Sequence record: LN881738.1
Origin: Clostridium phage slur17
Strand: one strand, 5' to 3'
DNA: 41,318 nucleotides
Positions 15,027 through 32,126 of this stretch are shown piece after piece (the first letter of the stretch is position 1; each line of letters begins with the position of its first letter). Below the pieces are notes generated by a model. That model ran no database searches and had not been told where the DNA came from. It was given only the letters and a program-made list of their open reading frames with translations. The position numbers and the translations under genes were made by a program.

Positions 15027-15157
15027 AAAAACCTCCTGTTTTCATTTACAATTACGCTTTTTTACGTGGTAGCATCACATATTGTCTAACTTTTTACGTC
15101 GCTTAGTAGACATCTATATAAATGAATTAAGTATTTTAAGCATAAAAATAAGTCTTA

Positions 15158-28471: not shown

Positions 28472-30658
28472 CTACATAAAACCTTTTAATAACAATAGTT
28501 TTTCATCTTCATCTAAAGAGTTCAACATCCTGTCTTTTGTATATTTTATAGCATTTTCTAAACTCTTATCTTTTTCGTCTAATTCTAAATCTTTTTTTAT
28601 GTCATCTACAGTTATATATCTTTTTATATTATTAAGTTGTATTCGTTTTTTTTCAAACTGGCATGATATAGGATTTATATTTTTATAAAAAAACATAGTT
28701 TCTATATCATGCCAGTTACTATATTTTTTCTTTTCTATAATAAAAATTCCATTCAGTGTAACGCTTAGCTTTTTAGTTGTTAAATCCCAGTTTTCCCCTA
28801 AAATTGTTCTTAAGTCGTTACTTAACTCTTGTAAATGCAATTCTTTATAAGATGTTCCAATTCCAAACAATTTATCTATATAATTAAATACTGTAACTTG
28901 AATAAGTTCATCATTTAAAAACTCTGGATATTCCTCTTTTAATTCTCTATATATTAAAGTATTTATTTTATTAAATATTACCCCACGTCTTTTGTTTGCT
29001 GTATTCGCTAGTTTCCAAGCAAGGTCTAAGTCGAACTTATTATCTAGTACATAATTAGAATATAGTTCTAACATGCTATTACTTTTACTTTTCTTTACCA
29101 AATTATGTATGTCATACGCTCTGTAAGCCTCTAAGCACCCTTTTGAACTTAGTTTCATATCATTATGATACTGCATTAGTGAAAAGCTCTTAGAATCGCT
29201 TTTAATCTGTCTATAACCTACTAGAATTTCTTTATGTTCTTTTAAAATTTCTCTTGTTGCATCTTTAATTTCTTTTACAACTTTCTTGTACTCTTTTAAC
29301 TCTTTTTCATTTGTGCCAACTTCTTTAGCATCAGTTATATTAACATTTTCAAAATATTCTTCTAATAACACTTTAAAACTTTGAATTGTTCTTGTATTGT
29401 AATAGTTGCTGTAAACTTGACTTTTTATATATAATTTATCTACTTTATAGCAATTATCTTTTGTACAGTAGTACACATTTGAGTCTATGCGAATTGGCGT
29501 TGCATTTATTCCAACTGTTTCAAACTGTAACATGTGTTTAGATACTTTGTTATAAGCATCTTTTAAGATAGTTGCTTTTTCTATATTTTTGTTAACTAGC
29601 CATTCAATTTTGTATACATTGCACTCTTCTTCATATTTATTGAATATGTGTACATTTACTTTTTTTAAGTTTCTAAACCTTGCAACATACTGTTTTATAG
29701 CTCCAACATCTTTTATATTAACAATAATTATATCTGTGATATCTTTGTTGTTTATATTTACACCAGCTAGGATTGTTGTTGTATTTAAAAGCGTTTCATA
29801 GTCTTTCATGTCTGAATTTTTAACTATTCTATTGTACAATTCATTCTCTTCTTTTCCATCTGCATATACAACTCCAACTTTTTTGTTCACTGAATCTCTT
29901 ATAAATTCTAATGTTGATATATCATTCATCAACATGGCGCTGTTTTTAGATTTATTTATTATGTTAATCATTTCAGTAAAATTTTTATTGTCAAAGTCGT
30001 TGTACAATTTAACTTTATATTCTGTTTTTTGCTTTTGAGTGTACTCTATTATGTAGTCATATATTTCAAATTCAAGTTTTGTTGGTGTTGCTGTAATGTC
30101 TATTCTTCCTTTGCACTTAGACATTATATTATTTAGATTTTTTATTGCTTTTCCTCGATATGCATCTGTATAAGTTTGATGTATTTCATCAACTACAATT
30201 ATGTATTCACTTAAGTCTGTGTTTATAAGTTTTTCAGTTTTATCCCAAGTCATTACAACTAAGTTACCATTTTTAAATGCTTCGCTAACAGGTATTTTGT
30301 CATATGCTCCTGGTATATCATACTCGTGCATTGCCTGCTCCACATTTGAAGCATTTGGAAGTATGAATAACGCTTTTGTTTTTAATTTTTTTAATGTATT
30401 TATAAAGCTATAACTTTTTCCTGCTCCTGTCGGTGCAATAAACAGGGTTTTCCCGCCATTTATCGCGTTGGCTATAGCCGTTTTAATTCCTAGTTTTTTT
30501 TCGTTTATATATTTTTTTATTTCATATGTTTCATGTCTATTGAAATTTGAATAATTTTCTTTTTCATGCTCTGCTCTTTCAGCGCTACATTCTTCTAAAA
30601 ACATCTTATCTATATTATTTTTATTAACATTCTTCATCTTTATCCCTCCAATTTCCAC
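28472..30658 (-). CDS. SF2 (DEAH-type) helicase with uncharacterised C-terminal extension of about 350 aa
   Basis: Walker A FIAPTGAGKSYSF, Walker B/motif II VVDEIH, motif III ITATPT, motif VI-like QYVARFRN in the first ~380 aa; C-terminal half has no motif I recognise. Confidence 0.8.
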   Translation of the reverse strand: MEIGGIKMKNVNKNNIDKMFLEECSAERAEHEKENYSNFNRHETYEIKKYINEKKLGIKTAIANAINGGKTLFIAPTGAGKSYSFINTLKKLKTKALFILPNASNVEQAMHEYDIPGAYDKIPVSEAFKNGNLVVMTWDKTEKLINTDLSEYIIVVDEIHQTYTDAYRGKAIKNLNNIMSKCKGRIDITATPTKLEFEIYDYIIEYTQKQKTEYKVKLYNDFDNKNFTEMINIINKSKNSAMLMNDISTLEFIRDSVNKKVGVVYADGKEENELYNRIVKNSDMKDYETLLNTTTILAGVNINNKDITDIIIVNIKDVGAIKQYVARFRNLKKVNVHIFNKYEEECNVYKIEWLVNKNIEKATILKDAYNKVSKHMLQFETVGINATPIRIDSNVYYCTKDNCYKVDKLYIKSQVYSNYYNTRTIQSFKVLLEEYFENVNITDAKEVGTNEKELKEYKKVVKEIKDATREILKEHKEILVGYRQIKSDSKSFSLMQYHNDMKLSSKGCLEAYRAYDIHNLVKKSKSNSMLELYSNYVLDNKFDLDLAWKLANTANKRRGVIFNKINTLIYRELKEEYPEFLNDELIQVTVFNYIDKLFGIGTSYKELHLQELSNDLRTILGENWDLTTKKLSVTLNGIFIIEKKKYSNWHDIETMFFYKNINPISCQFEKKRIQLNNIKRYITVDDIKKDLELDEKDKSLENAIKYTKDRMLNSLDEDEKLLLLKGFM

Positions 30659-30724
30659 CTGGAGGCTGACGCTCTTTTTTTGATTTTTTGTAATAATTTT
30701 ACTATTAAAATTACCTTAAAACCA

Positions 30725-30753
30725 TTGTGTTTTTCTACACTTTGTCTTATAAT
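30725..30753 (+). promoter_or_regulatory. Sigma-A-type promoter (orphan; upstream of a structured non-coding region)
   Basis: -35 TTGTGT (30725-30730), 17-nt spacer, -10 TATAAT (30748-30753). Confidence 0.4.
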
Positions 30754-30759
30754 ATAAAT

Positions 30760-30866
30760 ATAAGTATAGAAAAACAAGGATATATTATCCTTAAGAGAGG
30801 TCTAACCTCCGGTGTAAGGAACATGGTTTGTTTGACGGCAAGTACATGTTCCTTGTTTATTTTTTT
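30760..30866 (+). ncRNA. Candidate small RNA of about 100 nt
   Basis: Downstream of the promoter above: short hairpins, then a 10-bp stem AAGGAACATG (30816-30825) / CATGTTCCTT (30845-30854) followed by a T-run to 30866; no ORF with a usable SD. Confidence 0.3.
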
Positions 30867-31006
30867 GTAGATTTTTTTAAACCAATTAAAAAAAAGTTTT
30901 CTGTTCGTTGTGATTATAATTATAGCACATTTAAATTATAAAAAAATATACTCTTTTTGAAAATAAATTATATTTTAAAAATATATTTTCTAAAATACTG
31001 CATTTT

Positions 31007-31039
31007 AAAAGACTTAGTATATAAACTAAGTCTTTTTTT
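31007..31039. terminator. Intrinsic terminator-like hairpin
   Basis: Perfect 10-bp stem AAGACTTAGT / ACTAAGTCTT with 6-nt loop, followed by T7; no protein-coding gene upstream on either strand. Confidence 0.45.
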
Positions 31040-31156
31040 ATGTAAATATATGTTATAATAATTTTAGCAAGAGAAAGCAATCTATATTCTAAAAAAAGAG
31101 TGGAGTCTATACACAAAAGATTATCCTCCCAACGCTACAAAGGGAGGTGATGAAGT

Positions 31157-31309
31157 ATGGATAATTTTTTACTTAATGTATTAGCTGGTGTTATAGCTAG
31201 TTTAATATTCTATATAATTAGCAAATTATTTAGACAAGTAAAAAACCACTCTGCGCAAAAGAGTGGTTGGGAATTTGATTTGAGAATCAAATTCAAAAAG
31301 TTTAAATAA
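31157..31309 (+). CDS. Small membrane peptide, type I toxin-like (50 aa)
   Basis: Hand-verified ORF MDNFLLNVLAGVIASLIFYIISKLFRQVKNHSAQKSGWEFDLRIKFKKFK with strong SD AGGGAGGTG 6 nt upstream; one hydrophobic helix then a Lys-rich tail; two hairpins in its 3' part. Absent from the ORF track (shorter than 60 aa). Confidence 0.5.
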   Translation: MDNFLLNVLAGVIASLIFYIISKLFRQVKNHSAQKSGWEFDLRIKFKKFK

Positions 31310-31361
31310 TTTTTTATTTTAGACTAAAACTCTACTCTTATGACTAGAATACAGTTCTCTT
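31238..31361 (-). ncRNA. Candidate antisense sRNA convergent with the toxin-like peptide gene
   Basis: Minus-strand promoter: -35 TTGTAT (plus 31392-31397), 18-nt spacer, extended -10 TGTGATATAAT (plus 31368-31378). Minus-strand terminator: stem 31244-31252 / 31260-31268 followed by T-run (plus A-run 31240-31245). Overlaps the 3' 70 nt of the peptide gene. Confidence 0.4.
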
Positions 31362-31454
31362 GCTTTTATTATATCACATTTTCTTTAAAAGATACAACTT
31401 TACATCATTTTCAGTATTCTATTTTTTTTATTTTTATCAAAGTTTATTTTAAGA

Positions 31455-31566
31455 ACGATAAAATTAAAAAACCACTCAAACGCCAATAAGAGTGGTTTAA
31501 GAAAATAAGTTATTTTTCAAAACATTGGAAATAGCTACTCTTGTGTAAAGTAAATCATTATTTCCT
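31455..31566 (-). ncRNA. Second, paralogous sRNA candidate with no intact partner ORF
   Basis: Near-identical promoter copy (-35 at plus 31599-31604, -10 at plus 31574-31579) and homologous terminator hairpin AACCACTC (31460-31467) / GAGTGGTT (31480-31487) with T-run on the minus strand; no peptide ORF on the plus strand opposite. Confidence 0.35.
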
Positions 31567-31761
31567 TGCTTTTATTATATCACATTTTTTAAAAAAAGAT
31601 ACAATTTTACATCATTTCTAATATACTAAAATCTTTACTTTTTACCAAAATTTGTTTAAAAAATAGGAGAAAACTATTGTTTTTGACGACCCGTCATGGT
31701 ATAATATATTTATAGAGAAGGAGGTGAGAAAGCAAAAAAATAAAAGAAAGGAGGAACGGGA

Positions 31762-31890
31762 ATGGGGAGATTAGAAAGAAGTAAAAAGAAAAGAGAAAAC
31801 AAATTTAACATAGTTAAAAAAGTTTTCTCCTTCATCCTATTATTACTTAACATAATCCTCGCAGTTCTAAGAATTTTGAAAGAACTGTAA
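31762..31890 (+). CDS. Small membrane peptide (42 aa)
   Basis: MGRLERSKKKRENKFNIVKKVFSFILLLLNIILAVLRILKEL; SD AAAGGAGGA 6 nt upstream; promoter-like TTGTTT-17-TATAAT at about 31676-31705; imperfect hairpin after the stop. Confidence 0.4.
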   Translation: MGRLERSKKKRENKFNIVKKVFSFILLLLNIILAVLRILKEL

Positions 31891-31964
31891 GGATAAGCCT
31901 AGAGGGAATAGCCCTTCTCTCTAGGTGACTTCTTTCTAATATTATAACACATTTCTAAAAAAAC

Positions 31965-32126
31965 ATGAGTGATAAATTTTATAAGATTTGCATTGTTTTA
32001 GTTTTGATAACTATAGTCTTAAATATAGTATCTATAGTATTAAACTCTAGTACAAGCAACATGCTCGGTTTAGTTTTTAGTGTTGTATTATTGCTTTTCT
32101 TTGTAATACAGCAAAAAAGGAGCTAA
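31965..32126 (+). CDS. Small two-helix membrane peptide (53 aa)
   Basis: MSDKFYKICIVLVLITIVLNIVSIVLNSSTSNMLGLVFSVVLLLFFVIQQKRS; no clear SD; its stop sits 3 nt before the AbrB-like gene start. Confidence 0.3.
   Translation: MSDKFYKICIVLVLITIVLNIVSIVLNSSTSNMLGLVFSVVLLLFFVIQQKRS

Follow-up and report, generated by a model that had tools for sequence, protein, structure and literature searches.

A conserved three-hairpin small RNA gene of C. difficile phage-plasmids, predicted to lie antisense to the leader of a replication operon

The region at positions 30725–31039 of Clostridium phage slur17 (LN881738.1; the whole stretch of 41,318 nucleotides is referred to here as the window) was found to carry a gene for a conserved, structured, non-coding small RNA (sRNA). 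The region is located between the genes for the SF2 helicase gp35 (28472–30637, minus strand) and the toxin gp33 (31157–31309, plus strand). That this sRNA gene is real, chance being excluded by conservation and covariation, is evident from comparison of its relatives, and its sequence is coupled to that of the helicase ribosome-binding site (RBS). We propose, at chances that we put at about even, that the sRNA is a countertranscript within the helicase leader, where it would block a helix that opens the Shine-Dalgarno (SD) sequence and would in this way repress the first replication gene. A first-pass annotation of the window had described the region as one or two sRNA genes, orphan and divergent from the helicase operon. 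The first of these two units is borne out by covariation, while the remaining parts of that description have to be revised as set out below.

Structure and conservation of the sRNA gene

The sRNA promoter (30725–30753, plus strand) consists of the -35 element TTGTGT (30725–30730), a 17-nt spacer and the -10 element TATAAT (30748–30753). Both elements are present as first reported, but the wording "near-consensus" was too generous, since the -10 is a perfect consensus while the -35 agrees with TTGACA at only 3 of 6 positions. A generic promoter scan did not list this promoter in the window; the homologous TTGATT-17-TATAAT was called, at 10 of 12 positions, in phiCD506 and phiCD6356 (loci L009 and L014), and TTG-17-TATAAT is invariant in all 19 distinct relatives. 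With a predicted start near A30760, the product would be an sRNA of ~107 nt (30760–30866, plus strand), which is supported by fold z-score, covariation and a covariance model and contains three hairpins in the predicted fold: HP1 (30776–30792), HP2 (30797–30809), which includes a C-rich motif, and HP3 (30815–30855), which has an 11-bp outer stem and a 6-bp inner hairpin (30827–30842) with the apical loop UGAC and, together with its U-tract (30856–30866), forms terminator T1. The hairpins and strong terminator that had been noticed downstream of the promoter are accordingly confirmed. Segment 30760–30870 folds to -31.9 kcal/mol (z = -4.3), with equal stability reached by 0 of 200 shuffles, and three terminator-like sites occur in 3 kb where 0.8 would be expected. 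At the sequence level, the HP3 apex reads UUGA (30832–30835), and UUGG in phiCD6356, which is a YUNR-like U-turn motif.

Positions 30400–31400 are 100% identical to the corresponding regions of Clostridium phage phiCD38-2 (NC_015568), phage CDSH1 and the circular C. difficile plasmid pCd23_2 (41,319 bp), and the sequence identifies the window as the C. difficile phage-plasmid phiCD38-2/pCd23_2. The helicase gene and the intergenic region up to 31039 share ~75–94% identity with those of the Leicestervirus phages phiCD111 and phiCD146 and of the Sherbrookevirus phages phiMMP04, phiCD506, phiCD481-1, phiCDHM11/13/14, JD032, JD033 and CD2301, as well as with those of 22 circular C. difficile plasmids (PLSDB), which likewise bear the sRNA unit. 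Many of the carriers are deposited as circular plasmids, and further ones as phage genomes, with ParA adjoining the unit in the records inspected. Scanning viral contigs with a gapped pattern yielded 13 true sRNA loci; this pattern superseded a scan with a 14-mer of the HP3 apex, which hit 120 loci, none of them containing the sRNA. Among genome contigs the unit was found in C. difficile CD160 only, besides two chance matches, and a helicase-based locus search returned the same contigs and no relatives outside C. difficile phages. In the comparative set the unit is represented by 19 distinct versions.

A covariance model built from 8 of these versions recovers every relative at 104–124 bits and the divergent homologue of phiCD6356, which has the same three-hairpin architecture, at 53.9 bits. 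In a structure-aware covariation search on a model-fitted alignment of 14 distinct sequences, 100% of the cells pair and 12 of the 24 pairs show compensatory changes, a result reached by 0 of 500 shuffles; slid registers, like the shuffles, score far below the true register. A separate MAFFT/RNAalifold run concurs on the covariation of the structure. Among the relatives, the outer stem of HP3 is built from four different sequences, HP2 is GAGG/CCUC, AGGG/CCCU or GAGC/GCUC depending on the lineage, and in HP1 a G-C pair is replaced by A-U in phiCD6356 and is G-C again in AR1074-1. In 10 of 10 variants HP3 folds more stably in plus-strand than in minus-strand RNA, owing to the G-U pairs of its inner hairpin.

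The Leicestervirus and Sherbrookevirus relatives all share one HP3 apex sequence, UUGUUUGACGGCAA. In AR1074-1 and in two independent plasmid records, pCd18_3 and an FDAARGOS_1528 plasmid (L163, ~1040–1085; L164 and L165), the apical ~20 nt of HP3 are inverted with respect to phiCD6356 (alignment score of 21 when reverse-complemented versus 5 in the same orientation), with the stem and the plus-strand U-tract kept. This inversion hints that the function resides in sense-antisense complementarity, in which case it would be neutral.

The region gave no match to the Rfam 15 covariance models at gathering thresholds (chance-level matches only at E up to 10), no tRNA or tmRNA was detected in it, and it is unannotated in every Leicestervirus, Sherbrookevirus and plasmid relative record compared. 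The sRNA represents a new RNA family, absent from Rfam and from all of the at least 50 deposited annotations inspected, and it is unmentioned in the accessible literature on C. difficile phages and transcriptomes; the study of phage JD032 did not cover non-coding RNA (PMC7205517). The earlier statement that no credible open reading frame (ORF) lies in this region also held: ORFs of 47 and 37 aa on the plus strand and the 61-aa gp34 of phiCD38-2 on the minus strand are present, none is kept in the relatives, two of which lack any ORF of at least 25 aa here. A protein-coding reading of the region, gp34 included, was rejected on this lack of conservation. The gp34 ORF itself (30931–31116, minus strand, TTG start), annotated as a putative secreted protein, is kept by no relative and omitted by PGAP, and its annotation is probably spurious.

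The helicase leader and its ribosome-binding site

The gene proposed to be regulated, gp35 (Pfam ResIII, 4.8e-10; DEAD, 2.1e-8), is by annotation the first gene of the leftward replication operon. The sRNA unit accompanies the first replication gene even where this gene differs, being mostly the SF2 helicase but in phiCD6356 a winged helix-turn-helix protein (weak DnaD_N match), with no helicase at that position. The promoter scan listed nothing between the helicase start and the sRNA promoter, and the only good minus-strand helicase promoters are situated to the right of the sRNA gene, with scan matches at 30942..30913 and 30963..30935. The previous description of the unit as divergent from the helicase operon is, in view of these positions, probably wrong. 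The predicted helicase-operon promoter belongs to a near-invariant AT block (30909–30955, minus strand), which is conserved more strongly than any other part of the intergenic region and in which no conserved RNA structure was detected. The block contains i) an extended -10, TGTGCTATAAT (30929..30919), of the form T(R)TGnTATAAT, which is conserved in all relatives and invariant across lineages that are ~25% divergent elsewhere (TATGCTATAAT in phiCD6356), and ii) a further TATAAT in tandem (30918..30913), which has a TTTATA 18 nt upstream of it, the same TTTATA-18-TATAAT being found in phiCD506 (L009). Since the helicase gene is the first of its operon, no nearer promoter was found and the AT-block promoter is conserved, a leader of ~275 nt (30638–30912, minus strand) is predicted, in which the mRNA would start near 30912 and positions ~46–152 would be fully complementary to the sRNA.

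A hairpin predicted in this leader, PH (UUUUUCUAUACUU pairing with AAGUGUAGAAAAA; 30730–30774, minus strand), spans the sRNA promoter and 5' end. It was identified by a repeat search and is kept by different sequences in each lineage. A comparison of strands found it to be stabler as minus-strand RNA in 10 of 11 variants (-12.3 versus -8.5 kcal/mol), because its G-U pairs would be C-A on the plus strand, and PH thereby provides independent, model-based support for a minus-strand RNA crossing the sRNA region. The sRNA is probably a cis-antisense transcript within the helicase leader, and the term "orphan" would then not apply to it.

Two further features of the leader were noted. In all lineages the complement of HP1 (HP1'; 30776–30792, minus strand) is followed by a run of U5-7 (30775..30770), a weak terminator-like arrangement which could be an attenuator in the helicase leader; the same U-run is also one arm of PH. 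In addition, a 45-aa minus-strand leader ORF (30640–30777) ends 2 nt before the helicase ATG, resembling an arrangement for translational coupling, but most relatives lack it or have it frame-shifted, and a leader peptide was rejected for this reason.

The helicase SD is positioned 6 nt upstream of the ATG (30637). In the RNAalifold consensus of the leaders it is sequestered by a hairpin (30644–30666, minus strand) in which the anti-SD CCUCCA (30665..30660) pairs with the SD UGGAGG(G) (30650..30644). This hairpin covaries (CCUCCA/UGGAGG, CCCU/AGGG and CCCC/GGGG), with 98% of the cells paired and 3 compensatory pairs, and it is stabler as minus-strand RNA in 13 of 13 variants. The ~20 nt around the anti-SD (copy B, 30656–30675, minus strand; RNA AGAGCGUCAGCCUCCAGGUG; listed in the repeat search for L007) are an inverted near-copy of HP2 and its flanks (AGAGAGGUCUAACCUCCGGUG; copy A, AGAGAGGTCTAACCTCCGGTG, 30794–30814, plus strand), and therefore HP2', the leader complement of copy A and the proposed activator arm, can form a long-range helix of 14–18 bp with the anti-SD segment. 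The same inverted-copy relation is found in the phiCD506 and phiCD6356 lineages, and the three lineages (GGAGG, AGGG and GAGC types) build the helix from unrelated sequences.

The long-range pairing is supported by the minimum free energy (MFE) fold of the leader, by duplex energies and by covariation. In the MFE fold of the window leader, HP2' pairs with copy B over 18 bp, and the duplex of the two has an energy of -27.1 kcal/mol versus a shuffle mean of -9.7; cognate duplexes range from -18 to -27 kcal/mol versus shuffle means of -5 to -10, with 0–3 of 300 shuffles equally stable. The core of the helix pairs to 88% and has 13 compensatory cells, and one of its pairs occurs as C-G, U-G, A-U and U-A. 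Nine of the 19 distinct leaders have the long-range helix in their MFE fold and the others have the local SD hairpin, a split outcome such as two competing states would give. When the sRNA target is masked, the predicted probability that the SD is unpaired falls from 0.29 to 0.10, and the change is in the expected direction in 17 of the 19 variants. In silico, the antisense target appears to pair over a long range with the sequence beside the sequestered RBS.

Proposed control of the replication operon and other explanations

From these features we infer transcription of both strands, a direction of regulation and a physiological role, in which the region would be the control hub of the replication operon of the phage-plasmid. 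The plus-strand promoter, probably constitutive, would make the ~107-nt sRNA ending at T1, and the helicase operon would be transcribed in the opposite direction from the extended -10 promoter between the two terminators, so that the sRNA would have its exact complement in the helicase leader. As long as this leader is free, HP2' would pair with the anti-SD segment, the SD would be free and the helicase would be translated. Pairing of the sRNA with the leader, which probably begins as a loop-loop contact at the HP3 apex with its YUNR-like UUGA, would sequester HP2', and the anti-SD would then fold onto the SD and turn translation off. Convergent transcription may add transcriptional interference. 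Because the dose of the sRNA would follow gene copy number, the outcome would be negative feedback on replication, i.e. control of copy number or incompatibility.

Several points weigh against this proposal. The -35 of the minus-strand promoter is poor; the thermodynamic switch is modest and runs in the wrong direction in 2 of the 19 variants; and MFE predictions are unreliable for an AT-rich RNA of 300 nt. The strand-asymmetry test on the long-range helix does not separate a role in RNA from one in DNA. The 14-sequence alignment of the sRNA was fitted to the model structure, and the covariation overall stems from about three deep lineages plus minor variants, so that the number of independent events is small.

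Because the strand test on the long-range helix is undecided, some probability, which we regard as low, attaches to a role at the DNA level, where the inverted ~20-bp copies and the AT block would be operators or initiator sites and an origin unwinding region, the transcripts serving in activation or priming of the origin. Consistent with this, the AT block is conserved in its primary sequence but shows no RNA structure, the two inverted-repeat copies change together with the lineage of the neighbouring replication protein, and positions 30850–31050 have the lowest GC content (14–17%) of the profiled 29800–32000, resembling an origin. A search for iterons in this stretch found only a weak 13-bp repeat, TAAAATATATTTT, in 2.5 copies (30964–30997). 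A three-hairpin antisense RNA of ~108 nt also resembles ColE1 RNA I. The repeat copies differ, on the other hand, by three indels in ~21 nt, which would be tolerable as bulges in RNA but would throw DNA sites out of register, and the anti-SD that takes part in a covarying RNA hairpin falls within copy B. The origin-like AT stretch is partly dispensable, a portion including the 13-bp repeats being deleted in the viable AR1074-1/pCd18_3 lineage. RNA-based prophage origins have a precedent (PMC7157519). Origins of the ColE1 type are Rep-independent, however, whereas the region here leads directly into a gene for a replication protein whose SD would be regulated.

It is also unlikely, and slightly more so, that the sRNA is an independent trans-acting regulator which pairs shortly and imperfectly, through the CCUCC motif or the HP3 apex, with mRNAs of the host or other mRNAs of the phage, the helicase promoter being close to its gene. 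Conservation of promoter, structure and terminator together, the invariant HP3 apex and the C-rich motif in HP2 would all suit such a regulator. The complement of the apex was not found elsewhere in the phage, however, and among phage targets the predicted duplexes with the toxin, parA, repressor and helicase-TIR mRNAs were no better than shuffles. Trans action would leave unexplained both the co-evolution of HP2 with the helicase anti-SD and the minus-strand-specific hairpin over the sRNA promoter, and the inversion of the apex in a lineage that is maintained speaks against a fixed seed for a trans target.

The least probable alternative, to which we give little credence, is a terminated leader of the rightward genes in the style of lambda PR'-6S RNA-tR', with a constitutive promoter whose transcripts stop at T1 or T2 unless a phage antiterminator permits read-through into the exonuclease or ParA genes, the sRNA being a by-product or a cis-acting antitermination RNA: two tandem strong terminators do follow one promoter directly upstream of plus-strand genes, and the JD032 helicase, exonuclease and ParA are co-expressed middle genes (PMC7205517), but the downstream genes have promoters of their own in or after T2 (TATACA-17-TATAAT in Sherbrookevirus; TGnTATAAT, 31051–31059, for the toxin) where the lambda arrangement has a downstream operon that lacks one and depends on read-through, the unit remains attached to the replication gene on its left although the gene on its right varies by lineage, a Q-like gene was not identified, though no systematic search was made, and the co-evolution of HP2 and anti-SD would be left unexplained.

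Countertranscript control could extend further, although we consider this extension rather unlikely: the sRNA would determine both the copy number and the incompatibility of C. difficile phage-plasmids and would double as an RNA-based barrier to superinfection. The invariant HP3 apex would let a resident element silence helicase translation of incoming relatives, and the lineage-specific pairing of HP2 and anti-SD would set the specificity. The apex inversion in the AR1074-1 lineage, which would swap the kissing loops between the strands, might then be an escape from cross-repression.

Comparison with known antisense systems

Countertranscripts controlling plasmid rep genes include R1 CopA/CopT, pMV158 RNA II, pT181 RNA I and pIP501 RNA III. 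The sRNA resembles these in being small (~50–150 nt) and strongly structured, in having a promoter and an intrinsic terminator to itself, in its predicted antisense position within the 5' leader of an extrachromosomal replicon's first replication gene, and in its YUNR-like loop motif and expected dose-dependent repression. It differs from them in that i) no Rfam family resembles it in sequence or matches it by covariance model, ii) its target is the SF2 helicase (the winged helix-turn-helix protein in phiCD6356) of a phage-plasmid and not a classical Rep, and iii) the leader has no clear attenuator terminator (only the weak HP1' and U-run) and no conserved leader peptide. In ColIb-P9 and IncB (pMU720), the rep RBS is held in a local hairpin, a distal leader element pairs near it to activate, and Inc RNA blocks this contact. 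The sequestered RBS and the long-range activating contact at the antisense target are similar here, as predicted in silico, whereas the contact would be a helix of ~14–18 bp titrating the anti-SD instead of a short loop pseudoknot, a conserved repY-like leader ORF is lacking, and the context is that of an AT-rich Gram-positive phage.

Short phage antisense RNAs that repress a neighbouring gene are represented by P1/P7 c4, P22 sar and lambda OOP. The sRNA would likewise be a phage-encoded short antisense repressor of an adjoining gene, but those RNAs control an antirepressor or cII, and the Rfam C4 model does not match the sRNA. As in the ColE1 RNA I/RNA II and mycobacteriophage plasmid-prophage origins (Wetzel et al. 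2020, PMC7157519), an antisense RNA of ~108 nt with three stem-loops would be complementary to the 5' part of a longer opposite transcript near a plasmid-prophage parA locus; in contrast to those origins, the long transcript predicted here runs on into a replication-protein gene with a regulated SD. The RCd antitoxin RNAs of the C. difficile type I toxin-antitoxin systems (Peltier et al. 2020, PMC7699646) are comparable in that the sRNA, too, would be a small RNA of antisense type, encoded by a C. difficile phage beside gp33, but it neither overlaps nor complements a toxin mRNA and belongs to another recombination module.

Elements like phiCD38-2 and the Sherbrookeviruses are common extrachromosomal prophages of C. 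difficile, and some such prophages modulate toxin and surface-protein expression. The sRNA is a concrete, unannotated RNA candidate with base-level predictions for two promoters, the sRNA itself and an SD switch; it could explain which phage-plasmids coexist and could serve to cure or engineer such elements. According to a plasmid survey of 2017, no incompatibility system had been reported for C. difficile.

Terminator T2, the mosaic junction and the toxin neighbourhood

The second terminator reported in the first-pass annotation, T2 (31007–31039, plus strand), was confirmed by a terminator scan and by its conservation; it has a 12-bp stem (31007–31036), the loop ATATAA and a run of T7 ending at 31039. 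Among the relatives the loop varies, whereas the stem either does not change or does so only by G-U wobbles, which form pairs in plus-strand RNA; it follows that T2 acts on transcripts of the plus strand. In the interval from T1 to T2, no convincing plus-strand promoter was found and the T2 hairpin is the only conserved RNA structure, and 31 nt upstream of T2 are missing in the AR1074-1/pCd18_3 lineage, which also includes the FDAARGOS_1528 plasmid. The second sRNA gene that had been considered for this interval was rejected on these grounds, and T2 looks like a fail-safe terminator or an insulator at the end of the module for replication control. In Sherbrookeviruses, the promoter of a 3'-5' exonuclease gene, TATACA-17-TATAAT, is embedded in the T2 loop and T-run (L009, 1852–1880, in phiCD506), so that terminator and promoter overlap.

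A mosaic (recombination) junction (31039/31043) directly follows T2. The sequence to its left is shared with Sherbrookevirus helicase modules and that to its right with phiCD6356 and toxin-parA modules of the pCD630 type; the toxin promoter of the window is on the right side, after T2. Phage phiCD38-2 is an episomal prophage, i.e. a phage-plasmid, whose 1.9-kb region containing parA and gp33, a type I toxin gene, originates from a plasmid of the pCD630 type (Peltier et al. 2020, PMC7699646). The sRNA had also been placed next to a hub of toxin-like peptides, and gp33 is indeed nearby, with the 3' end of the sRNA ~200 nt upstream of the predicted start of the gp33 mRNA. No link to the toxin peptides was found; the duplexes with toxin mRNAs do not surpass those of shuffles, and the junction parts the sRNA module from the toxin module.

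The gp33 coding region contains a terminator-like hairpin on the minus strand (31268..31244; AACCACTC...GAGTGGTT followed by a T-run), which is probably the 3' end of an antitoxin RNA, and a similar hairpin, AAACCACTC...GAGTGGTTT, recurs ~200 nt downstream (~31468–31500). The only curated Rfam match in the window is a GP20-b RNA motif at 15053–15112 on the minus strand, which scores 55 bits (gathering threshold, 36.2).

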